From positions 5,115 through 69,114 of the forward strand of contig VHAX01000006.1 in assembly GCA_016872215.1 (NCBI GenBank): a DNA stretch of 64,000 nt, given 5' to 3'. This DNA is from Sphingomonadales bacterium. Lineage in GTDB: Bacteria; Bacteroidota; Bacteroidia; UBA7662. This document shows, piece after piece, positions 10,851 through 59,922 of this stretch (its first letter is position 1; every line of letters begins with the position of its first letter). Under the pieces are notes generated by a model. It searched no databases. It was not told the DNA's origin and saw nothing but the letters and a program-made list of their open reading frames with translations. A program made the translations under genes and the position numbers.

Positions 10851-10968
10851 GTGGTTCGTTTAGGTTGATGGCAGAAGTATAACTAGGTATCTGGTAAAAG
10901 TGGTTCGTTTAGGTTGATGGCAGAAGTACTATGGGCATCAGGTAAAAGTGGTTCGTTTAGGTTGATGG
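10851..10968. repeat. Three tandem direct repeats (period ~49 bp) upstream of the TonB-dependent receptor gene
   Basis: GTGGTTCGTTTAGGTTGATGGCAGAAGTA starts at 10851 and 10899. A third, partial copy GTGGTTCGTTTAGGTTGATGG starts at 10948. A TTCGGTTCGT half-unit also lies at 10841-10850. Confidence 0.7.
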
Positions 10969-11024
10969 TTTAACTGCAATGGGAATCCTCAAAAAGAGCG
11001 ATTTGACACTACAAAAATAGAACA

Positions 11025-41699: not shown

Positions 41700-42098
41700 T
41701 TAGAAACATTTTGGATACTTGAACGTATTTATGGCAATGTCTGCATGACACCCATGGTTTTAGCTGAGCTTGAGCTACCCGTGCCGGATTTTATTGAAAG
41801 CCCCGATGTTATAAACCTGAATTTATATCGAGTGCTAAAGGAAGTAGTTGACCCGGAGAAGCTTATGTCTTGGTGTTGGCATTGGAGAATCCCGAGGCAA
41901 TAGTCAGCATGGATGATTTACCTGGATGAGGGGAAGCCAAGGAAATCGGTATTAGGTTGACCGGAGCACTTGGGGTTTTAGTTAGAGCAAAAGGGGAAAT
42001 TATATCGCCGGCTTAGACTCTTACACCACGAAATTGCGGATTATTGGATTTAGAATTTCAAAGAATATCATGGAGTTGGCCCTTGAGCTATCAAGGTG
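41700..42098 (+). pseudogene. Decayed DUF3368/PIN-like (toxin-type) gene remnant
   Basis: Fragments in two to three frames read like DUF3368: ...VLAELELPVPDFIES..., ...AKEIGIRLTGALGVLVRAKGEIIS... and a C-terminal ...KLRIIGFRISKNIMELALELSR. They are interrupted by stops and frameshifts. No intact partner antitoxin was seen. Confidence 0.4.
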
Positions 42099-43614
42099 AA
42101 TTAATAATATTGTTCAGAAGGGTGTCGGCCAGGAGGCGGTCGTTGCTGAGGCGGGGAACTTTATTTTGTCCACCAAGTTTCCCTTTTTTTTTGTGCCATG
42201 TGTAGAATGTGCCTGATGGAAGATTGATAAGTTCCGGAGCGCGAAGGGCTAGGTCACCTGTACGTTTGGCGTCGTAATCGGAATTGATGCTGCGCAAAAC
42301 CTGGTCGATCGTCGCGATAAAATCCTGAGGATCTTTGGGTACTATTTCAAATTCCACCAGCCACTGGTGGGCACCCGATTGTGTACCGGTTAGGAAGAGT
42401 GGGGCCACGGTGTAATCACGAACGCGTGCGTCGGTGCGCGTACAGGCATCTGCCAGGGCGCGTTCGGCATTTTCCATAATCACCTCCTCCCCAACAATGT
42501 TGATGTAGTGTTTGGTGCGGCCAACGAAATGGAATCGGAAAGGGTATTTCTGTGTAAACCGGATCGTGTCGCCAATCAGATAGCGCCATAGGCCCGCGTT
42601 GGTACTCAAAACGGGAGCGTATGGGCGGTTGAGTTCTATTTCATCGAGGGTGTACGTACGGGGATGGGACTGCCCGACGTCTGACGGGTCCATGAACTCG
42701 AAAAAGATGCCGTAGTCGAGGAGCAAGAGCATTTCCCCCTGGCTATTGAGGCGGTCGGCGAAACCAAAAAAGCCCTCCGAGGCGTTGTAGGTCTCCATAT
42801 AGTTCATATGGTCGGATGGAATCATTTGCCGGAATGTTTCGCGATAGGGGTAGAAACCCACACCGCCATGGAAGTAGACCTCCATATTAGGCCATATTTC
42901 GCCGATATTGGATTTTCCGGTGTGGTTCAGAATCCAGCGGAACAGGACCAAAAACCATGTTGGAACGCCGGTCATGTTGGTGACATCCTGCTGCATGGTT
43001 TCCCGGGCGATTCGTTCTACTTTAATCTCCCAATCGTCGAGTAAGGCCACGGAAAGTTCGGGTGTGCGAATAAATTCGACCCAGAAGGGCAGATTTTGCA
43101 TCAACAGGGCTGATAAATCACCATAATAGGTGCCTTCCTTGAGCGAATTGATCTTGTGGCTTCCCCCAATGGTGAGTCCTTTGCCGGAAAAAATATGTGT
43201 GTCGGGCACCAATGAGCAGTACATGGCCAGCATATCCTTTCCCGCTTTGAAATGGCAGTCTTCGAATGCCTCCTCGCTCACTGGTATAAACTTGCTGCGG
43301 TCGTTGGTGGTGCCGCTTGATTTAGCGAACCACTTGATTTCGGTAGGCCAGAGCACCTGCTGTTCACCTTTCATGACCCTTTCGATCCATGGAAACAATT
43401 GCTCATAGCCCGAAACAGGCACCCGTTCACGGTAATCTTCAATCTTGTGAATTTGGGCGTAACCGAACGTACGCCCCCACTGTGTGTCGCGGGCTTTGAA
43501 GAGTAGTTGACGAAAAACATCGTTTTGTACCTCCATGGGGTACTTCATAAACAACTCTACCTGATGGAGGCGTTTTTTCATCCACCAGCTGATCAGCGAA
43601 TTCAAAACTGACAT
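42091..43614 (-). CDS. GH3 (auxin-responsive promoter) family acyl-adenylate-forming enzyme-like protein
   Basis: 507 aa with a conserved GH3-family N-terminus (…KYPMEVQNDVFRQLLFKARDTQWGRTFGY…YEQLFPWIERV) and layout typical of Bacteroidota GH3 proteins. Confidence 0.7.
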   Translation of the reverse strand: MSVLNSLISWWMKKRLHQVELFMKYPMEVQNDVFRQLLFKARDTQWGRTFGYAQIHKIEDYRERVPVSGYEQLFPWIERVMKGEQQVLWPTEIKWFAKSSGTTNDRSKFIPVSEEAFEDCHFKAGKDMLAMYCSLVPDTHIFSGKGLTIGGSHKINSLKEGTYYGDLSALLMQNLPFWVEFIRTPELSVALLDDWEIKVERIARETMQQDVTNMTGVPTWFLVLFRWILNHTGKSNIGEIWPNMEVYFHGGVGFYPYRETFRQMIPSDHMNYMETYNASEGFFGFADRLNSQGEMLLLLDYGIFFEFMDPSDVGQSHPRTYTLDEIELNRPYAPVLSTNAGLWRYLIGDTIRFTQKYPFRFHFVGRTKHYINIVGEEVIMENAERALADACTRTDARVRDYTVAPLFLTGTQSGAHQWLVEFEIVPKDPQDFIATIDQVLRSINSDYDAKRTGDLALRAPELINLPSGTFYTWHKKKGKLGGQNKVPRLSNDRLLADTLLNNIINSP

Positions 43615-44362: not shown

Positions 44363-46093
44363 TCAAAGGAATTTGATGTCTTTGATGATCAATTTAATCT
44401 CGGATTGCTTACGAAAAGTATTCTCCTCAATTGTATAGGCCATATTAAAGGGAAGCCCCTTAGCTATCCGGTTTAGGTGCATTGCGGAACCGAAGGCGAT
44501 GGCCGTAATTGCCTGTCCATCGTCTTGCTGCACCCTTAGAAGCAGGTGGTTTTCGCCCACCACACGAGCCGAACCATCGGAAAATACTGCTTCTGAAGCG
44601 AACACCGGCTTTGGGTTGTCGTGACCAAACGGGGCGAATTGTCGGAGGATCCGATAGAATTTAGGTGTGATTTGCGACAAACGGATTTGTCGCTCAATTT
44701 CGAGGGAAGGCACAAGCTGCTCGTCGAGAATCAACCGGTCTACCTCCTGCTCGAAACGTGTGCAAAAGGCAGATAGGTTTTCCTCCTTAATGATTAGGCC
44801 CGCCGCTGCTTCGTGACCCCCGAATTGTTCGATACACTCGGAGCAGCCCGACAAGGCCTGATATATGTTGAAGCCGTTGACAGTACGGGCCGAACCAGTG
44901 AGCAGGCCGTCGGCCTGACTAAAAACCACCGAGGGGCGGTAATATTGTTCTACGAGGCGGGAGGCAACAATGCCCAAAACCCCTTTATGCCAATTCTTGC
45001 CGTAAACCACCATGGTTTTGCGCTCGGAGAAATTCTCAGCACATCGGGCCATTTCAATGGCTTCGCGGGTGATTACGGCATCCACATCGCGGCGGTCGGA
45101 ATTAGTGGTGTTGATGGCGGCCGCCCGCACATCGGCATCGTTCATGTCGCAGCACAGCAACAACTCTACAGCCTGTCGGGCATCTCCCATTCTGCCAGCC
45201 GCATTGATCCGTGGTGCGATCGAAAACACGATGTCGTTCACGGTGAGCTCGTTTTTAGGCCGCGAGAGTTGGATCACCGCTTTTAGGCCGGGACATGGAT
45301 TCTGATTGAGTTTTTGGAGTCCGAAATACACAAGGATGCGGTTTTCACCAGTGAGGGGGACGAAATCGGCGGCAATGCTCACCGCCACGAGGTCGAGCGA
45401 TTGGGTGAGCCAGTCGGTCGACATGCCATGCTTCATAATGTAGGCCTGAACCAGTTTAAATCCAATTCCACAGCCACTCAGCTCCTTGAAGGGATAGGTA
45501 CAGCCAGGCTGTTTGGGATTGAGAATGGCATAGGCCGCGGGCAATACCGAAGGCAAATGGTGGTCGGTCACCACCACATCGATACCCAATTTTTTGGCCC
45601 ACTCCACCTCCGCAACTGCAGTAATGCCACAATCGAGGGTGATGATCAGGTCGATGTTCTGTTCGGCCGACCATTCCACCGCAGTCATGCTGAGGCCGTA
45701 CCCTTCCTTGTGCCTGTCCGGAACGTAGAACTGCACAGATGGATTGATTGAGGCGATGAAACGGTACAGAACAGCAATCGATGTTGTACCGTCCACGTCG
45801 TAGTCGCCATACACCAAAATCCGCTCCTGTCGATGTAACGCTTCTGTGAGGCGGTCAACCGCTTTGTCCATGTCCTTCATGAGGAACGGATCGTGGAGCT
45901 TGTTCAGGTCGGGACGAAAATAATCGCGTGCCTGTTCGAATGAGCATACCTTTCGGTGGCACAGTAGCCAGGCTATGGCTTCATCGACCTGCAAGGCTTC
46001 AGCCAGCACTGCCACAGACGCCAATGGGGGTGCCTTGGCATACTTCCATATTTTTTCGGATTTGGCGGTTTCGATCAGAACAGGCTCAGACAT
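44363..46093 (-). CDS. recJ: Single-stranded-DNA-specific exonuclease RecJ
   Basis: DHH motifs ([15 protein letters not shown]...), DHHA1 domain, 576 aa. Confidence 0.9.
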
Positions 46094-46151
46094 GACGAGG
46101 AATTGCTCAATATACGGGACGTAAACGAAATTCTCAATGGGTAGGCAAGAA

Positions 46152-48206
46152 TTAGAATTCCTTTAAACGTTTTTCGAGTGCATAAACTTCGTCGCGGTAG
46201 CGGGCGGCTTCAAGGTAGTCGAGTTCGCGTGCGGCCTTTTCCATGTTCTTGCGGGTGTCGCGCAGCATTTTTTCAATCTGGGGTTTGCTGAGGTAGGGCA
46301 ATAAAGGGTCTGCAGCGAGGTCGGTTTGGCCTTCGCTACAATCGGTCGGTGATGTAGTCGCCGCCTCATAGTTGCGGATGTCGAGTACCGCTGATTGTCC
46401 AATGATTTCCTCACGGCTCTTGGTAATTCCACGGGGGGCGATGTTGTGCATTGTGTTGTAGGCCATTTGCTTTTCGCGCCTTCTGGTGGTTTCGGTCATG
46501 GTTTTCTCCATCGAATCTGTGATTTTATCTGCATAGAAAATCACCCGACCCTCTACATTTCGAGCGGCACGGCCCGCTGTTTGGGTAAGGGAACGTTCGC
46601 TGCGTAGAAATCCCTCTTTGTCTGCGTCCAGCACGGCCACGAGCGACACTTCAGGGAGATCAAGCCCTTCTCGCAAGAGATTCACCCCAATCAGCACATC
46701 GAATTTGCCAAGGCGCAGGTCGCGGAGTATTTCAATGCGGTCTAGGGTCTCGACTTCGCTGTGCAGGTAGCGACAACGAATCCCCAGACCTCCCATATAG
46801 CGGGTCAGTTCCTCCGACATCCGCTTGGTGAGGGTCGTTACCAGCACCCGCTGTCCCCGTTCGATGGTATTTTGTGCCTCATTCAGTAAATCGTCAACCT
46901 GGGTGGCTACCGGACGCACTTCTATAATGGGGTCGAGCAGGCCAGTGGGACGAACCAGTTGTTCCACCACAACGCCCTCGCTTTTTATGAGTTCATAGTC
47001 ACCCGGCGTGGCACTCACATAGACGACCTGACCAGTGAGCTGCTCGAATTCCTCGAAACGAAGGGGACGGTTGTCCAGGGCGGCCGGTAGCCGAAAACCA
47101 TAGTCAACCAGATTCAGCTTGCGGCTTCGGTCACCCCCGTACATGGCACGCAGTTGGGGTAGGGTTTGGTGGCTCTCATCCAGAAAGATTAGAAAATCGT
47201 TAGGAAAATAATCGAGCAGGCAGAAGGGGCGCTCGCCGGGATTGCGCTGGTCGATGTAGCGCGAGTAGTTTTCGATGCCGGAACAATAGCCCAACTCGCG
47301 GATCATTTCGAGGTCGAAGGTCACCCGCTCTTCTAGTCGCTTGGCTTCTTCAAATCGACCCACATCTTTGAAGTAATTCACTTGAGCCACCATATCGTCC
47401 TGTATGGCGCATAAGGTGTAATGCATGCGCTCGCGTGGGGTGATGTAGTTGTTTGCGGGGAAGATGGCGAGGTGCTCCAAGACCTCGCTACTGCTTCCTT
47501 TGAGGGGGTCTGTCACCGACATCCGTTCGATTTCGTTGCCGAACAATTCAATTCGGTAGGCATGATCGGCGTAGGGGGGGTATACCTCGATATTGTCGCC
47601 CTGTACGCGAAAGTGTCCCCGCGTCAGTTCAGCCGTAGTTCGCGTGTAGAGGATGTCGACCAGTGCATGGAGTAGTGCGTTTCGGGTGATGCGCTCGCTC
47701 TTCGACAGGCGGATTACCTTTTCGGTGTAGTCCTTCGGGTTGCCCATGCCGTAGATGCAGCTGACCGAGGCCACTACTAATACATCGCGTCGACCGCTCA
47801 TGAGGGAGGAGGTGGTCCGCAGGCGTAATTTTTCGATCTCCTCGTTTATGGCCAGATCCTTTTCTATATAGGTGTTGGTGGTGGGGATGAAAGCCTCTGG
47901 CTGGTAGTAGTCGTAATAGCTCACGAAATACTCCACGGCGTTGTGGGGAAAGAATTGCCGGAATTCACCATACAGCTGGGCCACAAGTGTTTTGTTATGT
48001 GTCAGGATAAGGGTTGGTCGGTTGATTTGGGCAATGACGTTGGCCATGGTGTAGGTCTTCCCACTGCCTGTAACCCCCAGCAAAACCTGTGCGTCATCAC
48101 CCCGGGTGATGCCCTCGCTGAGCGCGCGAATCGCCTCGGGCTGGTCGCCCGCGGGGGGGTAGGGTGATTGGATTTGGAACTCCATGTGGGGTGGTATGAC
48201 CTGCAA
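46152..48206 (-). CDS. uvrB: Excinuclease ABC subunit B
   Basis: 684 aa with helicase motifs (GVTGSGKT), a UvrB interaction domain and a C-terminal UVR domain (LEKRLKEF). Confidence 0.95.
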   Translation of the reverse strand: MQVIPPHMEFQIQSPYPPAGDQPEAIRALSEGITRGDDAQVLLGVTGSGKTYTMANVIAQINRPTLILTHNKTLVAQLYGEFRQFFPHNAVEYFVSYYDYYQPEAFIPTTNTYIEKDLAINEEIEKLRLRTTSSLMSGRRDVLVVASVSCIYGMGNPKDYTEKVIRLSKSERITRNALLHALVDILYTRTTAELTRGHFRVQGDNIEVYPPYADHAYRIELFGNEIERMSVTDPLKGSSSEVLEHLAIFPANNYITPRERMHYTLCAIQDDMVAQVNYFKDVGRFEEAKRLEERVTFDLEMIRELGYCSGIENYSRYIDQRNPGERPFCLLDYFPNDFLIFLDESHQTLPQLRAMYGGDRSRKLNLVDYGFRLPAALDNRPLRFEEFEQLTGQVVYVSATPGDYELIKSEGVVVEQLVRPTGLLDPIIEVRPVATQVDDLLNEAQNTIERGQRVLVTTLTKRMSEELTRYMGGLGIRCRYLHSEVETLDRIEILRDLRLGKFDVLIGVNLLREGLDLPEVSLVAVLDADKEGFLRSERSLTQTAGRAARNVEGRVIFYADKITDSMEKTMTETTRRREKQMAYNTMHNIAPRGITKSREEIIGQSAVLDIRNYEAATTSPTDCSEGQTDLAADPLLPYLSKPQIEKMLRDTRKNMEKAARELDYLEAARYRDEVYALEKRLKEF

Positions 48207-48243
48207 AAATAAGGGATGGGGGATGCTTCAGGCGGTCAATTTC

Positions 48244-48573
48244 AAAAGCTTTTCGGTTCCGGGTCAAAGGCATAAAAACTTGCGCAGAATGGGATGAAAT
48301 TTTTTTTTAACAGTAGTATTTCTTTTCGTTGAACTCCTATTTTTATCCCATGCAGGATGTACTGTCAATTGTACTCGAAAAGGCGCGCAAAAGGGGTACG
48401 CCCCGTGCAAAAGCTTTTCGGTTCCGGGTCAAAGGCATAAAAACTTGCGCAGAATGGGATGAATTTTTTTTTTAACAGTAGTATTTCTTTTCGTTGAACT
48501 CCTATTTTTATCCCATGCAGGATGTACTGTCAATTGTACTCGAAAAGGCGCGCAAAAGGGGTACGCCCCGTGC
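48244..48573. repeat. Perfect 165-bp x2 tandem duplication in the uvrB/GDPD intergenic region
   Basis: Copy 1 at 48244-48408 and copy 2 at 48409-48573 are identical except a single-base shift within the homopolymer (GAAATTTTTTTTT vs GAATTTTTTTTTT). Each copy carries an AT-rich promoter-like stretch and the start of the small ORF ATGCAGGATGTACTG. Confidence 0.9.
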
Positions 48574-48670
48574 CGTGCTGGTTCGCTACCTGCGGATGAA
48601 GTACCATATCGAACTGAGTGCGGAGGTGCTCGACCGACGCAGTCGTATGCTCGGTATAAAGATTTCTTGA
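48515..48670 (+). CDS. Small basic ORF (51 aa) immediately upstream of the GDPD gene
   Basis: MQDVLSIVLEKARKRGTPRAVLVRYLRMKYHIELSAEVLDRRSRMLGIKIS. Its 5' end is duplicated (and truncated) in copy 1 of the 165-bp repeat. The stop lies 3 bp before the GTG start of the next gene. Confidence 0.3.
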   Translation: MQDVLSIVLEKARKRGTPRAVLVRYLRMKYHIELSAEVLDRRSRMLGIKIS

Positions 48671-48673
48671 GTT

Positions 48674-49687
48674 GTGCGTTGGAGATTGCCTGCATTTCTC
48701 AGCTGGTTGATACCGCCCCTTTTTTCCGTTTTGATGCCCCCGGCCGCCGCAACACAACTCATGGCGCAAACCATAGCAAAAACCACTACACAAGCTATTG
48801 CGCAAAACGCTACACAGATGGCAGCACAAACGCCCCGTTTTGATGTGCAGGGCCATAGGGGTGCCCGGGGCCTGCTCCCCGAAAACACCATCCCATCCAT
48901 GCTGGAGGCGGTTCGATTGGGCGTTACCACCCTCGAACTGGATGTGGTGATGACCGGCGATCAACAGATCCTGGTTTCCCATGAGCCTTATATGAACCCC
49001 GAGATTTGTCTGGATCCATACGGCCGCACACTCGACCCAACGACCCCCAAGGCCATCAATCTGTACAGGATTCCCTTTGATCAAATTCGGCAGTACGACT
49101 GCGGGAGTAAGGTTCACCCCCGCTTTCCCGAGCAGCGGCTCATGCCGGTCTACAAGCCCCTACTTTCGGAGCTTTTTGCAGCAGTCGAGCAATACACCCA
49201 GGAGCTCAGTTTGAGCCCAGTGCGTTATAACATCGAGATTAAGTCTGTGGCGGGACAAGACAACATTTCACAGCCCACCCCTTCTGTGTTTGCAGACGCG
49301 GTTCTGGCCGAGATCGCCCGGGCGGGACTGGGCGGACGGTGTATGATCCAGAGTTTTGACGCCCGCCCCCTTCAGTACATCAACCGAAACCGGGGAAATC
49401 AGCGCATTCCACTTGCATTTCTGGTGGAGGAAGGAAAGGATGCGGCGATTCACCTAAAGGAGCTGGGGTTCATGCCTGCGGTTTACAGCCCATTGTTCCA
49501 CCTACTCGACAAAAAGAAGGTCGACCAGTTGCACAAGCAGGGTATTCGGGTGGTGCCGTGGACGGTCAACGAGATCCGCGACATGGAACTGCTGATCGAT
49601 ATGGGCGTAGACGGGATTATCACCGATTACCCCGACCGGCTCATCAAACTCGTTCGCGAGCGAAACCTGCCTGGTTGGATCCCTTAA
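48674..49687 (+). CDS. Glycerophosphodiester phosphodiesterase (GDPD family), secreted
   Basis: HRG motif (FDVQGHRGARGLLPENT), E/D metal ligands, a signal-like N-terminus and a Q/T/A-rich low-complexity stretch. The ORF track places a GTG start at 48674. Confidence 0.8.
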   Translation: MRWRLPAFLSWLIPPLFSVLMPPAAATQLMAQTIAKTTTQAIAQNATQMAAQTPRFDVQGHRGARGLLPENTIPSMLEAVRLGVTTLELDVVMTGDQQILVSHEPYMNPEICLDPYGRTLDPTTPKAINLYRIPFDQIRQYDCGSKVHPRFPEQRLMPVYKPLLSELFAAVEQYTQELSLSPVRYNIEIKSVAGQDNISQPTPSVFADAVLAEIARAGLGGRCMIQSFDARPLQYINRNRGNQRIPLAFLVEEGKDAAIHLKELGFMPAVYSPLFHLLDKKKVDQLHKQGIRVVPWTVNEIRDMELLIDMGVDGIITDYPDRLIKLVRERNLPGWIP

Positions 49688-49694
49688 AAGTATA

Positions 49695-51233
49695 TTATTT
49701 TTGGGTGATCCGGCGGACCCGTACACGGGCGGCCAATGTGGTTGGTAGCGTATAGTCACCACGACTCGATTGCAAACAAACCACATCGGCTTGATCCGCA
49801 TAGATACGGGTGAAGGGCTGACCAGCGCTTATGCCTGCGTCCCACAATTTCAGTCGCACCCCTTCATCGGGTTGGGCGGATAGGATCATGCCCGCTTCGC
49901 CTGGTTCCAGTTCGGTGAGCCGGATAAACGATAAGTCTTCCAGATGCAGGTCATTTGTAGCCTCCCGTTGGGGAATTGAGGAGCCGTGTGGGTCGGTGAC
50001 CGGGTAACCCAGGCGGGCATCTACCGCATCGATAAAGCCTTGAGGCAGGCTATGTTCATAACGCTCGGCTTGCGCGTGCAGTTGACCTTCTGAAAGACCC
50101 ATTTCACGCCACAGATAGCTCTCCCACAAGCGATGCGCCCGAATAAGTTCGTAGGCGCGCTCGAGCCCGGCATCCGTCAACTTCCAACTCCCGCGACTCC
50201 CCTGCAATATCCATCCCCTGTTTTTCAATGATTGGAGACGCCTTAGCACAACACTTTCACTGAGGTTGAGTTTACCCGTGAGCGTATGAGTATCGAACTC
50301 TTCCCGTTCCTGTAGTTTTACGATCAGTTTCAGCACGTCCTCCAGTTGACGGGTGTGGCGGCGACTTCTACCGCGCAGGAATTGGGGGATGAGACCGTTA
50401 TCGGGGGAAAATAGTACGGCGAGCAGATATAGGACAAACGCCAGCAGGGTCATTGCAGGACCCGGAGGAAATTCCATCAGAATTGCTAGTATTAGTCCAC
50501 CCACGGCGGAAGCCACTCCGGTTGCGGCCGACAACAACAAAACCATGGGTAGTCGCTTGCTCAGGTGTAAGGCCGTCGACGCGGGTATGATGAGCATGGC
50601 CACTACCAGCACCACGCCCACCGACTGCAGGGAGGCAACTACAGCAAAGCTCAGGAGCAACATCATAAAATAATGCATCCAGTCGACCCGAATGCCGGAT
50701 GTTTGGGCGGTTACGACCTGGAAGGTGGTGATGAAGAAAAAGCGATAGAATAGTAGTATGCAGGCCACTGTGTATAATGCAATCAGTGCCCCAAGCCATA
50801 AATCCTCGTTGCCTATTCCCAAGACATTCCCGAACAGAAAGTCCTTCATGTCGAGGTGCACCCCCTGTCGGCGGGTTACCGCGGAAATTCCTATAATCCC
50901 CAGGGCGAACATGGCCGAGAATATGATACCGATCGCGGCATCTTCGCGGGCTTTGATTTTGCGCTGTAGCCAGGTGATCGCGGTGGCGGCTATAAGTCCC
51001 GCCACCACCGAACCTGTGAAAAAGGCGACCAGACTATGGCCGGCAATTAGAAATCCCGCCACAACACCAGGCAGGATAGCGTGCGACAAAGCGTCTCCGA
51101 TGAGCGACATATTTCTAAGTACTATGAACACCCCAAGCAGGCCACAGGTAATGCCAACGAGCACGGAGGCTAGCAGGGCACGTTGGGCGTAGGCCTGCTG
51201 CAGGATTTCGATGAGTTCACTATGGCCGTTCAT
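49695..51233 (-). CDS. Metal (Mn/Zn-type) ABC transporter permease fused to a C-terminal DtxR/MntR-family metal-dependent repressor domain
   Basis: N-terminal ~290 aa are an ABC-3 permease (8-9 TM helices; GDALSHAILPGV motif). The C-terminal ~220 aa carry a winged-HTH (…LKLIVKLQEREE…VLRRLQSLKNRGWI…), a DtxR-like dimerisation region and an SH3/FeoA-like tail. The ORF is continuous. Confidence 0.7.
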   Translation of the reverse strand: MNGHSELIEILQQAYAQRALLASVLVGITCGLLGVFIVLRNMSLIGDALSHAILPGVVAGFLIAGHSLVAFFTGSVVAGLIAATAITWLQRKIKAREDAAIGIIFSAMFALGIIGISAVTRRQGVHLDMKDFLFGNVLGIGNEDLWLGALIALYTVACILLFYRFFFITTFQVVTAQTSGIRVDWMHYFMMLLLSFAVVASLQSVGVVLVVAMLIIPASTALHLSKRLPMVLLLSAATGVASAVGGLILAILMEFPPGPAMTLLAFVLYLLAVLFSPDNGLIPQFLRGRSRRHTRQLEDVLKLIVKLQEREEFDTHTLTGKLNLSESVVLRRLQSLKNRGWILQGSRGSWKLTDAGLERAYELIRAHRLWESYLWREMGLSEGQLHAQAERYEHSLPQGFIDAVDARLGYPVTDPHGSSIPQREATNDLHLEDLSFIRLTELEPGEAGMILSAQPDEGVRLKLWDAGISAGQPFTRIYADQADVVCLQSSRGDYTLPTTLAARVRVRRITQK

Positions 51234-53407
51234 TTGGGTCCCAGTTGGTTGTGGTGAATCACTCCCGCTTCGTCGTAGAGTGAATGGAGTCCGGAATAGG
51301 TTTTCAGGATGTTCTCTTCGGTGAGGACTTCCTCGGGTCGACCAAATGCAATCAATCGCCGGTTGATGAGTATAATCTGATCAAAGATGCTGCGGGCACG
51401 GGTCAGATCATGGTGGATCATGAGCACCGATTTGCCAGTTTCCACCTCACGGCGCAGTACCTGTAGAATTTTATCCTCGGTAGATTGGTCAACTCCTGTG
51501 AAGGGCTCATCGAGCAGGTACCATTGGGGGCGTTGACAAAGTGTGCGGGCCAGAAATGCCCTTTGTTGTTGTCCACCGGAGAGGCCTCCAATCGGGCGGT
51601 GGCGCAGATGAAGGATGTCGAGTTCACTCATAGCTCGTTCCGCCTCCTGTAGGTCGTTTGGGTTGAGGAACTCCGCAGGCCGGTGGTGCGGATAGCGTCC
51701 CGTCAGCACCACATCTTGCACGGTGGCGGGAAAATTGAGGTCAATTTCCTCCCTTTGTGGCACATAGGCAACGCCTGTTGTGTGGTGGTGGAGGGGGTGG
51801 CCTGCCAGCTGCACACTCCCGCTGTCTGTTGATATGAGTCCGAGGGCCGACTTGAAGAGGGTGCTCTTTCCGGATCCATTGGGACCGACCAAGCCATAGA
51901 AGGCACCTGCGGGCAGGTCTAGCGAGAAATGCTGCAGTACGATGGTTTGTGAGTATGAGACCGATAGGCCGTCGATTTGCAGGGGGTGGCTGCGGAGGTC
52001 GATTTTCGGGGCGGGGCGTTGAATACGAAGGATCAGGAAAAAAACTGCGGCGGAAAAGCAGGCCACAATGATTAAAAGGAAAGCGAGGTTGCCGTTTTGT
52101 GAATGTTTGTCTGAGGGGTCTTCTGCTGGAATCGTTGTCTGGCCCTCCCTTTCCTGCAGCCCGCCGGAACCTGTTTCCTGTTGCGCACCGGAGCCTGTTT
52201 CCTGCAGCGCACCGGAACCTGTTTCCTGTTGCGCGCCGGAATCTATTCCCTCCGGTGCAAGTGCGGCTGCCAGTACCCTTGCGTTGTGTTTGAGCATGCT
52301 CAGGTATGTGTCGGCCCCGCTTCCTTTCGGGCCCATGCTGTCGGCATACAACTTTCCACCCAGGCGAATTCCACAATCTCGGGCCACTTGTTGCATGAGT
52401 CGCGGATTGAGTGTGGTTTCTACAAACAGCGCGGGTAGTTGCCGGCTTTGGATGTTTCTGATCATTTCCTGCAGGTCACCCGCCCGTATTTCAGCATCGG
52501 TAGTGGTGCCCAGTAGCGATAGAACCCCAAAGCCATAGCGGTTACCCATATAACGGAACGCATCGTGAGTGGTGGCGATGACCCGATGTTCGGGGGGAAT
52601 GGTCAACAAGATTCGCCGGATGTAGACGTCGGTTTTCTGAATTTGTTGATCATAATGATACCACCTGTTCACCAGTTCCTCTTGATGCTCGGGCAGAATG
52701 CTGATAAGAGCTTCGCAGATGTTGCGGGCGTATGCGCGGCCGTGTATGGGGTCCATCCAGGCGTGGGGGTCTACGCTTCCTGCGTGTTCAATGCTTTGGA
52801 TGGGCACGATTCCGCGTGTGGCGGTCACCCTAAGGGCTTGTTTACTGGTGTTTCGGATCAATTTTTCCAGCCAGCCCTCCAGTGTGAGTCCGTTTTCTAT
52901 GACCACGTCTGCCCTTGCCAGCAGCGCGGCGTCTCCAGGCGTGGCTTCATAGGTATGGGGGTCGGTACCTGTGGGGAGCAGCGACACCACTTCGCAGGCA
53001 TCACCGGCGAGGTTGGCGGTTATATCGGCCAGGAACCCGGTTGTGGCCACCACCAAGGGGCGTTGCCCCGGGCCTTTTTTGTTACTTGTTTGGTGGGATG
53101 TGGATTCAGGATTAGGAGAAGCAGACCGCTGTTTGGAATTTTGATCGAGTTGTTTTAAGGATGCGGATTGAGTGCCTTTACCATTTTGCCCGTTGGCATC
53201 TAGTGATGTGTTAAGGGTAATGTGCTCCATGTTGACGCTCGAAAACGTGTTATGAGCGTTACTGGAAGTGGTAGGCACATCGTTGCTTCTGGCGGTAACA
53301 ATAAATAGCGAGATTGTTAGAAATAGGATGAAAAATCGCCAGAATGACCGTAATCGGGGCATCCGCTTCAAAATAGGTCGACGAACAGCGCTCATGGGGA
53401 AATGCAA
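51230..53407 (-). CDS. Fusion of signal peptide, periplasmic metal-binding protein (ZnuA/MntA-like), repeat linker, single TM helix and ABC ATPase (ZnuC/MntB-like)
   Basis: Signal peptide (…FILFLTISLFIVTARS), S/N/T-rich extension and a cluster-A-1 SBP domain (LVVATTGFLADITANLAG…DPHAWMDP…). Then a linker with 3x ETGSGAQQ, a hydrophobic helix LAFLLIIVACFSAAVFFLIL, and an ABC NBD (GPNGSGKST, LSGGQQQRAFLAR, LLDEPFTGVD). It is a single 725-aa ORF. Confidence 0.7.
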   Translation of the reverse strand: MHFPMSAVRRPILKRMPRLRSFWRFFILFLTISLFIVTARSNDVPTTSSNAHNTFSSVNMEHITLNTSLDANGQNGKGTQSASLKQLDQNSKQRSASPNPESTSHQTSNKKGPGQRPLVVATTGFLADITANLAGDACEVVSLLPTGTDPHTYEATPGDAALLARADVVIENGLTLEGWLEKLIRNTSKQALRVTATRGIVPIQSIEHAGSVDPHAWMDPIHGRAYARNICEALISILPEHQEELVNRWYHYDQQIQKTDVYIRRILLTIPPEHRVIATTHDAFRYMGNRYGFGVLSLLGTTTDAEIRAGDLQEMIRNIQSRQLPALFVETTLNPRLMQQVARDCGIRLGGKLYADSMGPKGSGADTYLSMLKHNARVLAAALAPEGIDSGAQQETGSGALQETGSGAQQETGSGGLQEREGQTTIPAEDPSDKHSQNGNLAFLLIIVACFSAAVFFLILRIQRPAPKIDLRSHPLQIDGLSVSYSQTIVLQHFSLDLPAGAFYGLVGPNGSGKSTLFKSALGLISTDSGSVQLAGHPLHHHTTGVAYVPQREEIDLNFPATVQDVVLTGRYPHHRPAEFLNPNDLQEAERAMSELDILHLRHRPIGGLSGGQQQRAFLARTLCQRPQWYLLDEPFTGVDQSTEDKILQVLRREVETGKSVLMIHHDLTRARSIFDQIILINRRLIAFGRPEEVLTEENILKTYSGLHSLYDEAGVIHHNQLGPK
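52140..52262 (-). repeat. In-frame 21-bp x3 tandem repeat encoding the (ETGSGAQQ)-type linker of the SBP–ATPase fusion
   Basis: (ccggaacctgtttcctgttgcgcac)-like units repeated. The peptide is GAQQETGSGALQETGSGAQQETGSGGLQE. Confidence 0.6.
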
Positions 53408-53416
53408 AAATACAGA

Positions 53417-53433
53417 ATTTAGACTAGTCTAAT
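53417..53433. promoter_or_regulatory. Palindromic operator-like site ATTTAGAC-TA-GTCTAAT directly upstream of the metal ABC operon (candidate DtxR/MntR box)
   Basis: TTAGAC-TA-GTCTAA is a perfect inverted repeat starting 12 bp upstream of the annotated start codon (53407). It is near-identical to the site at 11036-11054. Confidence 0.4.
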
Positions 53434-53792
53434 ATTTAATTTCGATGTGTCTTAAATCGCATAAGTTAAGTTTATTCACAAATGAAATTTTGGTATCCAA
53501 ACTCTTTCCGCAAATTCTGTGTTTATTTTGCGTATTCAAATTTCTACTGCTTATGTTCTTTTTCTTGCCGCCTTCACCCCCAGCCGCTCCTGTAGTCGTC
53601 AACGTTCTGGCTGTTGATCCACCCAAATCAGACGGACGGCTCCTGACTGGTGGTGTAAACCGTTACGCATCTCGCATCTTCCTCCCAGCCATTTGGGCTG
53701 TCGGAATACCTGCCATGCCTAGATCTTCCTTACCCAACTCCTTTAACGAATCCATCTTAAACCAACATATTCTTCATTCTAAATCCAATAAA

Positions 53793-54401
53793 ATGTCATT
53801 TGAATTACCTCCCCTCCCCTACGCCTACGACGCGCTGGAACCGCACATCGATTCATCCACCATGCAAATTCACCATGGTAAACACCACGCGGCTTACGTC
53901 AACAATCTAAATGCAGCCCTCACAGGAACGCCACATGAGGGCAAGTCACTCGAAGAGCTGATGTCGATCGTGAGTCAGTTGTCGCCCGCTGTTCGGAACA
54001 ATGGTGGCGGTCACTACAACCATAGCTTGTTCTGGACAGTTTTGTCGCCCAAAGGCAGTGGCGCCCCAACCGGAGAATTGGCCAACGCCATACAGCGTGA
54101 CTTCGGGTCTTTTGAGACTTTCAAAGAGAAGTTTGCGCAGGCCGCGGCCACACGTTTTGGTTCCGGATGGGCCTGGCTGTGCTCGGAAAAAGGAAAACTA
54201 TCGATTTGTAGTACGCCCAACCAAGACAATCCCCTGATGGATGTGGTTACGGATTGCAACGGCATTCCAGTATTGGGATTGGATGTATGGGAACACGCGT
54301 ACTATCTCAAATACCAGAACCGCCGCACCGACTACATATCAGCGTTCTGGAATGTGGTGAATTGGGATGAGGTCAGCCGACGATACGCTGCGGCACGCTA
54401 A
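53793..54401 (+). CDS. sodA: Fe/Mn-family superoxide dismutase
   Basis: [32 protein letters not shown]...[18 protein letters not shown]. The ORF-track entry 53445..54401 includes a spurious 5' extension, and the true start is the Met at 53793. Confidence 0.9.
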
Positions 54402-54423
54402 TTCTCATTATTTTATTATGTTC

Positions 54424-54458
54424 AAAAAAAAGCCGGTTCGCAAAAACCGGCTTTTTTT
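54424..54458. terminator. Bidirectional rho-independent terminator between sodA and susD
   Basis: A8-AGCCGGTT-cgcaaa-AACCGGCT-T7: a perfect 8-bp stem flanked by A and T runs on both sides. Confidence 0.6.
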
Positions 54459-54470
54459 ACCTGTGGGGGG

Positions 54471-55787
54471 TTATTGATCCCACCAAAGACGTTGCAGAAA
54501 CCCATCAGCACCCTGTAAATCGATAAAATTGCTGTTGTAGAGGCGCTCATTCTGAGGATAAGGAAGTCTACGGGGAATTTCAGCGTATTGGGCGCCTGGA
54601 TAGACAGCGAGCGTTGGATAATTGGTGCGGCGCCAATCGGTCCACGCTTCCACATGTGAGAACATCGCCACGTACTTTTCGTTCATAACCTGCTCCAGAG
54701 TTGGATTGGCAGCAAGTGCGTTCAAATAGGTTGTGGCAGCTGCTGAGGGAACGCCTAAAGCCGACATATTGGCGTCCACCGCAGAGATAAGCGCCGTGCC
54801 TGCACCCGATGACTGGCGCTGGCGAACTTCAGCCTCGATGAACTTCAATTCCGCATAGGTCATCAAATTCAGCGGCGAGGTTTCCGAACCATAAGCAGGC
54901 ATTTCGGAAGAGTCGGCCGAACGATAAAGAGATATTCTCGGGTCATTTTTACCCTCCATCAGGGTATACATGGTGCCAAATTGACTAATATATCCAGCTC
55001 TTTGGGTGTTGAACTGATACCAGGGATTGGTGTTGGGCGACACCTGGAAGGTAATGCGCGCATCATCGGCGTTCGACGACAAACCTGCGGCAACTTCTGT
55101 CAGAATCGCAGCTGGGTTGTAATCAGGTTTCTTCGAAAGATGGTTCATGTAGCGCGCTTTCAGGGAATGCGCCAGTTTGGTCCACCTGGTCAGATTGCCC
55201 GCATATACCAAATCCTCGGCACCTGGCTTGGTAGATGATGCAGTGGCCGCCATATTGGCGATTGCCTCATCCAACAAGGTCATGATGCTTGCATAAATCT
55301 GCGCTTGCGAATCATAGGACGGATTCAAGCCATCGGCACCCTTCATGGCATCGGAATAGGGGATGTTACCCCAGATGTCAGTGAAGTGTCCCAGGTACAT
55401 AGCTGTCATCACCTTTGCAACACCCGCATAATGTGGGGACGATGCCTCAGTCTTGTCGATGATGATTTTCAAGTCATACAAGCCGCCGGCGTATCCATTG
55501 TCGGACCACACCTGATCGAAATCAGCCTCACCGATTTGCGCGTAGCGGTTATGGGCGAGCGACTGCCGGTCGGTGCCGGTCATTTGCTGCATGAAAATGG
55601 AAGTGAGGCGGGCCACCGCATCGCCCTGTGCCATCCCGAAGGAGATTTGGGCGGAGGGAAGCAAAACCTGAACTGATACGTCCGACGGGCGGGCAGGATC
55701 GGTGGAATATTCTTCCAACCATTCCTTAGAGCACCCCGCAAGAACGAAAAGCAGGAAGGTGAGTGAAAAATAAGTTAGTTTTTTCAT
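54471..55787 (-). CDS. SusD/RagB-family nutrient-binding outer-membrane lipoprotein
   Basis: Lipoprotein signal (LFVLAGCSKEW), TPR-like helical fold typical of SusD, and a position immediately downstream of a SusC-like gene. Confidence 0.8.
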   Translation of the reverse strand: MKKLTYFSLTFLLFVLAGCSKEWLEEYSTDPARPSDVSVQVLLPSAQISFGMAQGDAVARLTSIFMQQMTGTDRQSLAHNRYAQIGEADFDQVWSDNGYAGGLYDLKIIIDKTEASSPHYAGVAKVMTAMYLGHFTDIWGNIPYSDAMKGADGLNPSYDSQAQIYASIMTLLDEAIANMAATASSTKPGAEDLVYAGNLTRWTKLAHSLKARYMNHLSKKPDYNPAAILTEVAAGLSSNADDARITFQVSPNTNPWYQFNTQRAGYISQFGTMYTLMEGKNDPRISLYRSADSSEMPAYGSETSPLNLMTYAELKFIEAEVRQRQSSGAGTALISAVDANMSALGVPSAAATTYLNALAANPTLEQVMNEKYVAMFSHVEAWTDWRRTNYPTLAVYPGAQYAEIPRRLPYPQNERLYNSNFIDLQGADGFLQRLWWDQ

Positions 55788-55802
55788 GTTTCTTATCTGT
55801 TT

Positions 55803-58800
55803 TTAGAAGTTGGCTTTCAGACTGAAGATAATGCCCTTAGTGTTGGGCATGTTGAAGTAATCGGCGCCCTGACTATTTGTAGCACCCGAAAGGTTCGTTT
55901 CTGGGTCTATGCCTTTGTAGTCGGTAAACAACAATAGGTTTCTTCCGGATACACCGAGTGTGATGCCTTTTAGGGTACTTCCCGATTTAAAGTGATCGGA
56001 AGGCAAGCGGTAGTTCAAAGAAAGTTGACGCAGGCGAACCCAGGACCCGTCCTCGATGAATGGACTTGAGGCACCGGTGAAGCCACTGAGTGGACCCGTT
56101 GCATATGAAGTGTAGTCTGCCGGAATGGGAGTATTGTTGGCCTGTCCGCTCACGTCTTCGCCATTGATGATGGTTCCAGGTGCATAAACACCCGTGTTTC
56201 CAGTTTTTACATCAGTCCAAACAAACTCGCCAGAGCGATCACCGCCTAAATCGGCATGGGTGCCGAAATAGTAGAGCGCACCGCGGGTACCGTTCCATAT
56301 GTCGCCGCCCTGACGAATGTCCCAAAGCATGTCCATGCTCCAATTGCCCCAGCTGAGGTCTGAGTTTATGCCCATCAGCCAATCGGGGTTCGGATTGCCC
56401 ACCACAACTTCTGTTGATGAATAGATTGGGTAGCCATTCTCATCAACCAAAGCATTGCCATTGGCGTCGCGCTCCCAGTCATCCCCATACAGGGTTCCAT
56501 AGGCCTCGCCTTTCACAAGGCGCTGATTGGCACCGTAAAAGCCCCATGGCAAGTCGATGACATCCACTCCAGGGGCTAGTTCAACTACCTTGTTGCGGTT
56601 TCGGGTAAACACCACGCCTGCATTCCATTTCAACGAATTGTTGTCGACCAGCTTGATGCGGGTGTTCAACTCGATACCCTTATTTTCCATCTGACCAATG
56701 TTCTGGTACATATTCGTGAATCCAGTCGAACCAGCAACGGGCACCGCAACGATCAAGTCCTTCGACTGCTGGTTGTAATAGGTAAGGTCGACAGTGATGC
56801 GATTGTCGAGCAGACCCAATTCCAGGCCGATTTCATTGGTTTGGGTGAACTCAGGTCGCAGGTTGGGGTTACCCAGTACATCCGACAGGGAGAAGCCCGT
56901 TGTGGTGCCAAAGGGGAATTGTATGCCATCGATCCAGCCTGAAAAGGAGCCGGCTTTGTTGTAATAGGTGCGGTTGGAACCAAAGGCTGGCTCAAGACCC
57001 ACCTTGGCTGTAGAGAACCGTAGTTTACCTGAGCTCAAGGTGCCCGTATTCATGCCAAATGTCTCGCTGAACATCCAGCTTCCGCTAACGGATGGATAGA
57101 AGATAACCTGAGACACATCTCCAAAAGTGGAGGCTTGGTCGCCCCGTGCGGTAGCGGTCAGGAAGAACTGGTTTTGGTAGCCGAGCGACAATTCTCCATA
57201 AACTCCGGCGAGTCGACGGCGCTCCACGCTTTGTGAGGCAATGATGTTCGAAGCGTTGGATAGGTTATTGAATCCTTCTAACGCATAGCCATCTCCTTGT
57301 GCATAAACGTTATCCAAGTTGCGCTGGTTCACATTCCAGCCCAGCAACAGATTGGCATCGAGGTCGCCGAATTGCTTTTTGGCTCGGGCCACCAGATCAC
57401 TGTTTAATTCCGACCAGGTATATACGTCTTCTATGATCCGGCCATTCACGGCTGTACGTGATTGCCTGGCCAAAATTTGTGTCCTGCGGTCGGTGTAGTT
57501 ATCCGTACCCAGACGGTACATTAAAGATAGCCAATCGTTCGCATTGTAATCGGCTTGTACATATCCCTGCACACGGTTCACTTTGTCGTTGAATGGGTTT
57601 TTGTTTATGGTCCAATAAGGGTTATCATAGGTGGTGTGGTACCTGCGTTGTGTTCCGTTTGGTAAAAGGAATGATGCAGGATCATCGGCCTCCGTGGCGC
57701 CCCCTGAATTGTCAAATGTGGGCGAAGTGCGCAGCAATCCCAGCATGAGTCCAGAGGTATTTGAACCCTGTTGAATGCGCTGACCACCGGAGGTAGAGAA
57801 ATTTACGGATGATGACAATTTCATTTTTTGTGAAACTTGAGCCATACCGCTTGCGCGAACGGTAGTTCTGCTGAACTCATTCAAGGGAATGATCCCCGAC
57901 TCGCGGAGATTACCAACCGACATATAATAGGTGGTGCGGTCATTTCCTCCCGAAACACTCAAATTGTTGTTGAACCGGTATCCCGTGCGGAAGAAATCGT
58001 ATTGCTCGAATTTGGGTACAGTTCCTTTCGTGCCGGGTGCCATGAGGGAGTCAACCCCAGTGATGCTGCCACTGCTTGTGAAGCCCAAATCGCTGACTTT
58101 TGGTCCCCATGAAAAGGGTGTGGAGTTTCCGTTGGCGAATGAACGATAAACGCCCAGCCCTTGTGCATAGGTGTCCTGCAGTTCGGGGAGTTTGTTGGGC
58201 GACATGGTTTCCATGGAGGAAGAATAGTCGACCGTGAACGGGCGATTGAACTTGCCTTTCTTGGTGGTGATCAGGATCACACCATTGGCACCCCTGGTGC
58301 CATAAAGTGAAGCGGCGGCCCCGCCTTTCAATACTGAAATATCCTCGATGTCATCGGGGTTGATGTCGATGGCACGATTTGAAAGAGATACCCCGGCGCG
58401 CAAGTCCTCGGTGTTTAGTTGAGAGTTATCGATTGGCACCCCATCCACCACAAATAGCGGTTGGTTGTCATTCGCGCTGAACGAGGCGTTACCCCTGATT
58501 TTAATGTAGGAGGCAGCTCCGGCGGCACCACTCGAAGCGGTTACCTGAACCCCGGCGGCTTTGGCTGACATGGCGGATACCATATTGCTTTCGCCAGATG
58601 CCCGGATTTCGGCCCCTCCGACCTGTTCTACACTGTAACCCAAAGCCTTCTTTTCGCGGTTGATGCCCAATGCGGTAATCACCACTTCCCCCAATTGCTC
58701 GGCATCAGGCGACATCAGGACATCCATGGGCGCCGATGTGACCTTCATCGAGAGCTTTTGCATACCCAAATAGGTAAAGCTAATAGTAGCGTCGGCCGAA

Positions 58801-59000
58801 GCCACACGCAGACGGAAATGACCTTCCGCATTGGAGATAGTGCCGTTGGTCGTGCCTGTTTCCACCACGGCAACGCCCGACAACGGTGTTTTTCGGACGG
58901 CATCACGAATAATTCCGGTTGCCGTTATTGATTGAGCTGAGGCTAACCCCATAGGCACAAGCCAGCAAACCAAGCAGAGAAAAAGTTTGTTTGTGTTCAT
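55803..59000 (-). CDS. SusC/RagA-family TonB-linked outer-membrane protein
   Basis: 1065 aa with a signal peptide, CarbopepD_reg-like N-terminal domain, TonB-box/plug (…VLKGGAAASLYGTRGANGVILITTKKG) and a large barrel. Confidence 0.85.
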   Translation of the reverse strand: MNTNKLFLCLVCWLVPMGLASAQSITATGIIRDAVRKTPLSGVAVVETGTTNGTISNAEGHFRLRVASADATISFTYLGMQKLSMKVTSAPMDVLMSPDAEQLGEVVITALGINREKKALGYSVEQVGGAEIRASGESNMVSAMSAKAAGVQVTASSGAAGAASYIKIRGNASFSANDNQPLFVVDGVPIDNSQLNTEDLRAGVSLSNRAIDINPDDIEDISVLKGGAAASLYGTRGANGVILITTKKGKFNRPFTVDYSSSMETMSPNKLPELQDTYAQGLGVYRSFANGNSTPFSWGPKVSDLGFTSSGSITGVDSLMAPGTKGTVPKFEQYDFFRTGYRFNNNLSVSGGNDRTTYYMSVGNLRESGIIPLNEFSRTTVRASGMAQVSQKMKLSSSVNFSTSGGQRIQQGSNTSGLMLGLLRTSPTFDNSGGATEADDPASFLLPNGTQRRYHTTYDNPYWTINKNPFNDKVNRVQGYVQADYNANDWLSLMYRLGTDNYTDRRTQILARQSRTAVNGRIIEDVYTWSELNSDLVARAKKQFGDLDANLLLGWNVNQRNLDNVYAQGDGYALEGFNNLSNASNIIASQSVERRRLAGVYGELSLGYQNQFFLTATARGDQASTFGDVSQVIFYPSVSGSWMFSETFGMNTGTLSSGKLRFSTAKVGLEPAFGSNRTYYNKAGSFSGWIDGIQFPFGTTTGFSLSDVLGNPNLRPEFTQTNEIGLELGLLDNRITVDLTYYNQQSKDLIVAVPVAGSTGFTNMYQNIGQMENKGIELNTRIKLVDNNSLKWNAGVVFTRNRNKVVELAPGVDVIDLPWGFYGANQRLVKGEAYGTLYGDDWERDANGNALVDENGYPIYSSTEVVVGNPNPDWLMGINSDLSWGNWSMDMLWDIRQGGDIWNGTRGALYYFGTHADLGGDRSGEFVWTDVKTGNTGVYAPGTIINGEDVSGQANNTPIPADYTSYATGPLSGFTGASSPFIEDGSWVRLRQLSLNYRLPSDHFKSGSTLKGITLGVSGRNLLLFTDYKGIDPETNLSGATNSQGADYFNMPNTKGIIFSLKANF

Positions 59001-59083
59001 AATTTGGTTTTAGGGTAAAAAAGAAAGGTTGAAACTAGGGTAAAAAAGGTTGAAAACCTGTAAAGGTATAAAAATATTTAAGT

Positions 59084-59125
59084 AAAAAAAAAGCCCTGCA
59101 GGATTAAACTCCTGCAAGGCCTTTT
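59084..59125 (-). terminator. Rho-independent terminator after the OM beta-barrel gene (minus strand)
   Basis: GCCCTGCAGG-attaaact-CCTGCAAGGC (9/10-bp stem) preceded on the plus strand by A9, which is a U-run after the hairpin on the minus-strand transcript. Confidence 0.45.
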
Positions 59126-59151
59126 GAAAAATTTGATTTAAAACTTGCGCG

Positions 59152-59790
59152 CTAGAAGTAAACAGACAGTACAATCTGTCCGCCTGCATTGTCGTTTCCA
59201 ATGATGGTATGGCTGCTTTTGGCATCACCCATTTTAGTGCTGCCAAGCATAAGTCCTAATCCATACTCGGCACCGATGGAAACTTTTGGCCAAATAAAGT
59301 ATTGTGCACCTACAAAGCCGCGTGCCATAATTTCTGTGCCGCTCTCTTCGGTTTTGGTACTTCCTACTTCGGTTTTGTCGCTTGAAATCCCTAATCCTGC
59401 CTCAGCACCATAATATCCCATGATTCTATTGCCTCTGCGCAGTTTCATCATCCCAGCCATCAGGCTAATGTTTGACGCTGAAATAGTGCTGGTGTCGTTG
59501 GGCTTTGATGAAGCCATCCCAATTCCGATTCCTGCCCGATAAGCAAGATCATCCGATTTCATGTATGTGCCTACCAAGGTATTTTCACGTTGCCAATCCA
59601 TTTCGACCGAATTGCCGTCAGAAAATAAATTTCCGATGTAATTCAAGGCGGGCGCAGCGTTAAATCCGATAGAGTAATCTCCAGCGGCAGGTAAACGATC
59701 TTGTGCCCAGGCAGTAGCAGTGAACAAAAGAGAAGCGATGATCAGTGAAAAGATTTTTTTCATAAAAAAGGGTTTAATTTTCCTACTCAT
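59152..59790 (-). CDS. Outer-membrane beta-barrel protein (OmpA-beta-barrel/porin-like, OmpW-type size)
   Basis: Signal peptide MKKIFSLIIASLLFTATAWAQ, alternating amphipathic strands and a C-terminal ...VYF. Confidence 0.55.
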   Translation of the reverse strand: MSRKIKPFFMKKIFSLIIASLLFTATAWAQDRLPAAGDYSIGFNAAPALNYIGNLFSDGNSVEMDWQRENTLVGTYMKSDDLAYRAGIGIGMASSKPNDTSTISASNISLMAGMMKLRRGNRIMGYYGAEAGLGISSDKTEVGSTKTEESGTEIMARGFVGAQYFIWPKVSIGAEYGLGLMLGSTKMGDAKSSHTIIGNDNAGGQIVLSVYF

Positions 59791-59922
59791 AAGGCTTTTC
59801 GGTCACGCCCTGTTTGATTGGTTTTCTTGACTCCAAAGATTTATTAACACAAAGGTAATGTGGAAAATAATCGGGACAATTGCGGGGCACAAAAAGTTAT
59901 CCACACCTAATGTGGTTTTAAA

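Follow-up and report, generated by a model that had tools for sequence, protein, structure and literature searches.

The window, by which we mean the whole 64-kb stretch of DNA that was analysed, contains an AT-rich spacer (GC 0.39–0.42) between the divergent genes uvrB and GDPD (glycerophosphodiester phosphodiesterase), and within this spacer a 165-nt unit is present twice, head to tail. Both flanking genes proved to be those named by the first-pass annotation, uvrB on the minus strand with its ATG at 48185 and GDPD on the plus strand. An intact ORF of 51 aa lies directly upstream of GDPD, and a truncated, hybrid version of it is created by the duplication. The features discussed below are listed in Table 1.

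Table 1. Coordinates (window positions) of genes, repeat copies and sequence elements in and around the uvrB–GDPD spacer
Feature	Position	Strand	Remarks
uvrB	46152..48185	-	677 aa from ATG 48185; Pfam UvrB_inter, UvrB, Helicase_C, UVR; outside the duplication
Bacteroidota-type -7 box TATTTTTG, perfect	48204..48211	-	18 nt upstream of the uvrB ATG; motif scan; outside the unit
Copy 1 of the unit	48243..48407	+	A3T9 homopolymer form; extra copy relative to all other assemblies compared
Copy 2 of the unit	48408..48572	+	A2T10 homopolymer form; runs into the intact small ORF
Copy junction 48407/48408	48388..48427	.	40-mer, CAAAAGGGGTACGCCCCGTG followed by CAAAAGCTTTTCGGTTCCGG
A3T9 homopolymer pair, copy 1	48297..48308	+	contains the only copy difference (48299 A)
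A2T10 homopolymer pair, copy 2	48462..48473	+	48464 T; aligns with the TATTTTTG -7 box of relative L022
Conserved AAAAACTTGCG block, candidate -33 TTG element	48439..48449 (duplicated at 48274–48284)	+	invariant in the three-lineage alignment
Conserved TATTTTTA	48503..48510 (duplicated at 48338–48345)	+	4 nt before the ATG; three-lineage alignment
Hybrid ORF made by the duplication	48350..48475	+	ATG 48350, TAA 48473–48475; translation
Small ORF, 51 aa, basic	48515..48670	+	intact; continuous with copy 2
GDPD	48674..49687	+	Pfam PF03009, E = 1.4e-34

The organism is a freshwater lake bacterium of the Bacteroidota. Its placement in this phylum was based on a SusC/RagA protein (55803–59000, 633 bits) with a SusD-like neighbour (54471–55787), a DUF805 RNA motif (59776–59841) and a T9SS-tail protein on the adjoining contig. 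The exact RecJ and UvrB proteins of the window (44363–48185) are deposited at NCBI as MBM3918448.1 and MBM3918449.1 under the label ‘MAG: Sphingomonadales bacterium’; probably, either the contig was mis-binned or the MAG was mislabelled as Sphingomonadales.

The 677-aa UvrB product was also called on other contigs. For GDPD, the match to PF03009 was full-length (profile positions 1–243 of 244), with a score of 120.7 bits compared to a gathering cut-off of 23.6. The probable start of this gene, judging by its conservation, is the GTG at 48674, from which the GDPD frame begins with a hydrophobic stretch resembling a signal peptide; the start called elsewhere was the ATG at 48734 (317 aa). The stop codon of the small ORF (48668–48670) is separated from this GTG by 3 nt, and the resulting TGA-N3-GTG arrangement was conserved in an alignment of three lineages, which suggests that the small ORF and GDPD may be translationally coupled.

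The small ORF is a real, hitherto unannotated protein-coding gene under purifying selection. Comparisons with two other lineages returned dN/dS values of 0.118, 0.037 and 0.056, and the differences fell mostly at third codon positions (8/4/23, 9/0/25 and 8/4/25 for first, second and third positions, respectively). AlphaFold2 predicted a three-helix bundle (pLDDT 82). The protein matched no Pfam or NCBIfam family and no PDB sequence, and Foldseek found no significant fold match, the best E-value being 1.6 for helix-turn-helix-like three-helix domains. A profile search of 1.84 billion proteins returned a handful of relatives of 43–80 aa, one of which (P0037, 41% identical) is likewise encoded immediately before a GDPD gene, with otherwise unrelated gene surroundings. 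Synteny of the small ORF with GDPD was also kept in the two further lineages, and taken together these occurrences suggest a conserved small-protein/GDPD module. Loci with the small-ORF/GDPD arrangement are those of the window (48515–48670 with 48674–49687), L016, L022 and L061/L062.

Three approaches (TRF, a separate repeat search and direct comparison) agreed on the tandem duplication in the uvrB–GDPD intergenic region that the first-pass annotation had reported, although its coordinates of 48244–48573 were off by one and should read 48243–48572. TRF delineated a single array (48243–48573, period 165, 2.0 copies, 99% matches, no indels, score 655), while the separate repeat search gave the copy bounds shown in Table 1. 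Direct comparison showed 164 of 165 positions to be identical. The sole difference between copies was located at unit position 57 (48299 A in copy 1, 48464 T in copy 2), where the change from A to T turns AAATTTTTTTTT into AATTTTTTTTTT; the difference is a substitution that moves the boundary between the A and T runs, and not an indel. A 165-bp repeat of this quality is far beyond chance, and no second long near-perfect repeat of such kind was present in the 64-kb window.

The unit begins 57 nt beyond the uvrB ATG and consists of 107 nt of upstream sequence followed by the first 58 nt of the 51-aa ORF, including its first 20 codons. At the end points we observed a microhomology of 1 nt (C at 48243, 48408 and 48573), which is compatible with illegitimate joining but non-diagnostic. 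The DNA fold of the region around the junction (48380–48440) was no better than that of shuffled sequences, giving no indication of a hairpin, and the junction carried no Ns or other scaffold marks. No Rfam family, riboswitches and leader RNAs included, was matched in 47000–50000.

Shorter and less perfect tandem repeats were seen elsewhere in the window. A 24-nt repeat (3.8 copies, 52150–52269, minus strand) encodes an 8-residue repeat, GA(Q/L)QETGS, which lies in the linker between the ZnuA-like substrate-binding and ABC ATPase domains of an unusual fusion gene (51230–53395). This gene adjoins a second fusion gene (49695–51233, minus strand) encoding a 512-aa ABC-3 metal-transporter permease joined to an iron-dependent repressor (DtxR-type) C-terminal domain. 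A non-coding 48-nt repeat (2.8 copies, 85–91% matches, 10851–10987) is situated just upstream of a TonB-dependent receptor gene (8373–10841, minus strand).

The duplication leaves a full 51-aa ORF downstream and a truncated one upstream, as had been claimed, except that the truncated product is 41 aa long and not 42. The unit length is divisible by 3, so the reading frame of the upstream ORF continues through the junction, and its product comprises residues 1–20 of the native protein, after which 21 foreign residues are read from the sequence that precedes the ORF in copy 2. Searches for exact matches to the 48-aa and 41-aa truncated products returned no record. In terms of the predicted structure, the hybrid keeps helix 1 only and lacks helices 2 and 3; of the invariant residues of the family it retains the initiator Met alone, V21, R24, Y25, L26, K29, L39 and R42 all being missing. 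With these helices and residues gone, the 41-aa peptide is presumably inert.

Exact-protein look-ups yielded contigs from this Bacteroidota population with ≥99.9% identity to the window, from which copy number was established. Fifteen distinct contigs spanned both unit boundaries: two JGI metaSPAdes contigs (70 kb and 50 kb), the ENA MEGAHIT contig k141_71913 (91 kb) and 12 Logan contigs from 12 runs. All 15 were single-copy and none contained the junction, the distance from entry to exit boundary being 164–166 nt in these records vs 330 nt in the window. The ENA contig covers the whole window, and in it MurB and ZnuA lie closer together than in the window by exactly 165 nt; with copy 1 deleted, window positions 45065–59395 were 100% identical to this contig (L058) over 14,166 nt. 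The 40-mer across the junction was missing from all 62 fetched loci. A junction 38-mer was absent from the metagenome_contigs and genome_contigs collections, but the organism is barely present there (a small-ORF control found one contig and no genome), so that this absence has no evidential value. The two more distant lineages, with small ORFs 88% and 82% identical to that of the window, were single-copy as well. One copy is therefore the normal state of the population, and the second copy is private to this contig. This comparison with close relatives, which the first-pass annotation had called for, upholds and sharpens its alternative of a very recent duplication or an assembly artefact.

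Related JGI contigs (IMG 3300020193, 3300020197 and 3300020214) originate from a Lake Tanganyika study, in which samples were assembled individually with metaSPAdes 3.12; the JGI workflow employs k up to 127. Breaks in the Logan contigs were located at 48029/48030, owing to a conserved Walker-A 31-mer common to the uvrB of another species, and none of the 12 was broken at either unit boundary. One Logan contig (L013) was chimeric, its nt 1–77 coming from the uvrB of a different species, with the join (window position 48029) in the conserved Walker-A stretch. Elsewhere in the locus, a SNP at 42668, in the second codon position of a GH3/OlsH-like gene (42091–43614, minus strand), splits the population into two haplotype groups, with G in the window and in runs SRR16108666-73 and A in the JGI 70-kb contig. 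Among the records, the allele of the window at 42668 was carried by one long contig only.

No site of the locus varied more between assemblies of this population than the A/T tract in which the two copies differ, and it did so both in composition and in length: A2T10 was found in most records, A3T9 in four, A2T11 in one and A2T9 in one. The two copies in the window bear the two commonest of these forms, A3T9 and A2T10, each of which also occurs as a single-copy allele in the population. As this tract changes from one assembly to another, the base that separates the copies gives no date for the duplication, nor does it need any special explanation. The pattern fits a mix-up of two strain variants, and equally fits recurrent change at a slippage-prone run boundary, a process known as transient-misalignment mutagenesis. 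In its own right, this hypervariable homopolymer pair ahead of the small ORF marks a hot spot either of slippage or of sequencing error.

Sigma-A promoters of Bacteroidota are characterised by a TTG at -33 and TAnnTTTG at -7. The perfect -7 box upstream of uvrB lies within a block (48201–48219) conserved in three lineages and, on the strength of the motif, may serve as the uvrB promoter. The first-pass annotation suggested that a duplicated promoter can alter the dosage of GDPD. The unit does contain every upstream block kept in the three lineages, namely AAAAACTTGCG, the T-tract, GTTGAA and TATTTTTA. In relative L022, a TTG-N18-TATTTTTG arrangement aligned with the TTG and T-tract of the window conforms to the full Bacteroidota consensus. 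In the lineage of the window, what comes after the conserved TTG block (48274, 48439) is a T-run and not TAnnTTTG, and the full -33/-7 consensus (TAnnTTTG with a TTG ~17–23 nt upstream) was not found in the unit. The only plus-strand match of at least 5/6 to the -7 box in the unit was TATTTTTA (48338, 48503), which has no TTG partner and could alternatively be an A/U-rich translation start region. A sigma-70-type scan returned only two matches inside the unit, both on the minus strand and of a consensus that is not relevant for Bacteroidota.

Our working model is that of a population normally having one copy of the 165-nt segment, of which this contig would represent a part with two copies head to tail, as a result of a very young tandem duplication. 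The duplication could have originated by replication slippage or by illegitimate (RecA-independent) joining at the 1-nt microhomology, and would then have been written into the contig by a de Bruijn graph assembler. It would leave uvrB untouched, with its own promoter-proximal sequence. The downstream copy would keep the whole small-ORF/GDPD unit together with 107 nt of native upstream sequence, while the upstream copy would amount to a second upstream region driving the 41-aa hybrid peptide; any effect would consist of additional transcripts reading through into the small ORF and GDPD. Most probably, such a duplication would be neutral, and also transient, because direct repeats of 165 nt are readily lost by homologous recombination. 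The presence of the junction in reads, the mechanism of origin and the transcriptional consequences are points that we infer from the assembled sequences.

That the second copy is a young duplication of this kind, real but private to a sub-population, seems to us about an even proposition, and the argument in its favour comes from the way in which contigs are built. Provided that the window stems from a de Bruijn graph contig, the k-mers of its junction must be present in reads. At k = 127, every k-mer wholly inside the 165-nt unit covers position 57, so two copies differing there form one unambiguous linear path, which favours real junction reads over a graph error. Moreover, with stretches of 56 and 108 nt exactly in common, the two variants would already have been joined at k ≤ 99, leaving no gap for a scaffolder to mis-close. 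Against a real duplication stand the absence of the junction from every independent assembly, including the 91-kb MEGAHIT contig, the fact that the copies bear the two commonest homopolymer forms, as a mix-up of strain variants would produce, and a microhomology of only 1 nt with no slippage-favouring hairpin. The first two of these observations also lend weight to a local assembly error, whereby two single-copy variants (A3T9 and A2T10) were present in the sample and their 165-nt overlap was written twice instead of being merged; we consider this a strong contender, with a probability somewhat short of even. The error would have arisen not in the plain graph but elsewhere, for instance during scaffolding, gap closing, contig merging or bin re-assembly, and no cell would carry two copies. 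It would account for the single copy in 15 of 15 other contigs, for both homopolymer forms being known as single-copy alleles, for the exact identity with the ENA contig once copy 1 is removed and for the lack of any record of the truncated ORF product. The homopolymer (T9 to T11 among assemblies) is moreover a site prone to error and variation, where graphs fragment, and JGI contig L014 begins inside the unit, at 48446. The latter start was assessed as a possible k-linked signal and dismissed as coincidence, given that the first 127-mer ends at the unit end while the branch vertex lies one base further. On the other side of the balance, if the source was a metaSPAdes or MEGAHIT contig then the junction k-mers must have come from reads, the shared runs of 56 and 108 nt would join the variants at k ≤ 99 in a multi-k assembly, the junction is free of Ns and scaffold marks, and the 64 kb contain no other such duplication and so give no hint of a systematic fault. 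Concatenation of a SNP bubble was rejected as its source, since a unit of 2k-1 = 165 requires k = 83 with the SNP in the centre (position 83), and the actual SNP is at 57 of 165. More generally, a unit of 165/166 nt with a variant at 57 fitted the k-linked geometry of none of k = 33, 55, 77, 99, 127 or 141.

Two further readings carry much less weight. Two copies might be the true state of the population, with the repeat collapsed in all other assemblies: short-read assemblers often collapse tandem repeats, Logan contigs by construction cannot hold the same 31-mer twice, and the mixture of A3T9 and A2T10 could in principle reflect a random pick from two collapsed copies. A true duplication, however, would produce a cycle in a k = 31 graph with branch nodes at both boundaries, so that Logan breaks would be expected there, whereas the 12 Logan contigs run unbroken through both and their real breaks are otherwise explained. 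In addition, metaSPAdes (k up to 127) and MEGAHIT (k141) could have represented two differing copies and yet show one, as the shorter MurB-to-ZnuA distance of the ENA contig also attests. With unbroken boundaries and a single copy in long-k contigs, we rejected collapse for the 15 sampled records and regard it overall as extremely improbable. Very unlikely too, if not to quite the same degree, is an adaptive promoter duplication, in which the doubled upstream region would cause the small ORF and the secreted GDPD, an enzyme for scavenging organic phosphate, to be transcribed more strongly in a sub-lineage under selection. In its favour, the unit holds all the conserved upstream blocks and the start codon, the intact operon is preserved downstream, and the signal-peptide-like N-terminus of GDPD fits a role in nutrient acquisition. 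It is countered by the restriction of the duplication to one contig (0 of 15 other records, with no sign of spread), by the absence of the full -33/-7 consensus from the unit in this lineage and by the general rule that neutral transient duplications are far commoner than selected ones. If true, selection would be maintaining the duplication in a sub-lineage of this Lake Tanganyika population, and the case would illustrate, in nature and while still under way, how micro-duplication can alter regulation.

Whether a young private duplication or a local assembly error, the second copy is not a stable feature or one with a demonstrated function. Its biological weight is accordingly small: at best, it is a private and probably neutral micro-duplication in one sample, and at worst a local error in a public MAG contig that ought to be flagged. 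For annotation, the lesson is that neither the additional 165 nt nor the hybrid ORF of 41 aa qualifies as a feature of the organism. The useful by-product of the analysis is the small ORF gene and, with it, the definition of a small protein family, as yet uncharacterised and tied to glycerophosphodiester metabolism.

Compared to known systems, the upstream elements recall Bacteroidota sigma-A promoters in the perfect TATTTTTG box of uvrB and in the TTG-N18-TATTTTTG arrangement of L022, but depart from them in that the aligned -7 position of the window is a T-run (A2T10/A3T9) lacking the TA and the G, and in that the 5-of-6 match on the plus strand of the unit is placed 4 nt from the ATG with no -33 partner. 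Promoter duplications that raise expression are resembled insofar as the unit takes in the conserved sequence ahead of the first gene of a two-gene unit together with that gene’s start, with a complete copy downstream; unlike in those cases, the promoter here is not defined by a consensus and signs of selection or spread are lacking. Short-read local mis-assemblies share with the present case the uniqueness to one assembly, the location at a strain-variable homopolymer, copies that equal two variants of the population and the restored identity with independent assemblies on removal of one copy; they differ from it in that plain de Bruijn contigs cannot invent junction k-mers, while bubble geometry at the usual k and Ns are both missing here. 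Finally, although the microhomology of just 1 nt and the lack of the junction in a second assembly set it apart, the repeat has much in common with spontaneous short tandem duplications arising by slippage or RecA-independent illegitimate recombination, which likewise have near-identical head-to-tail copies, arbitrary end points and minimal microhomology, are private to one lineage and are expected to be unstable. Both outcomes, a transient private micro-duplication or a local assembly error, are ordinary.
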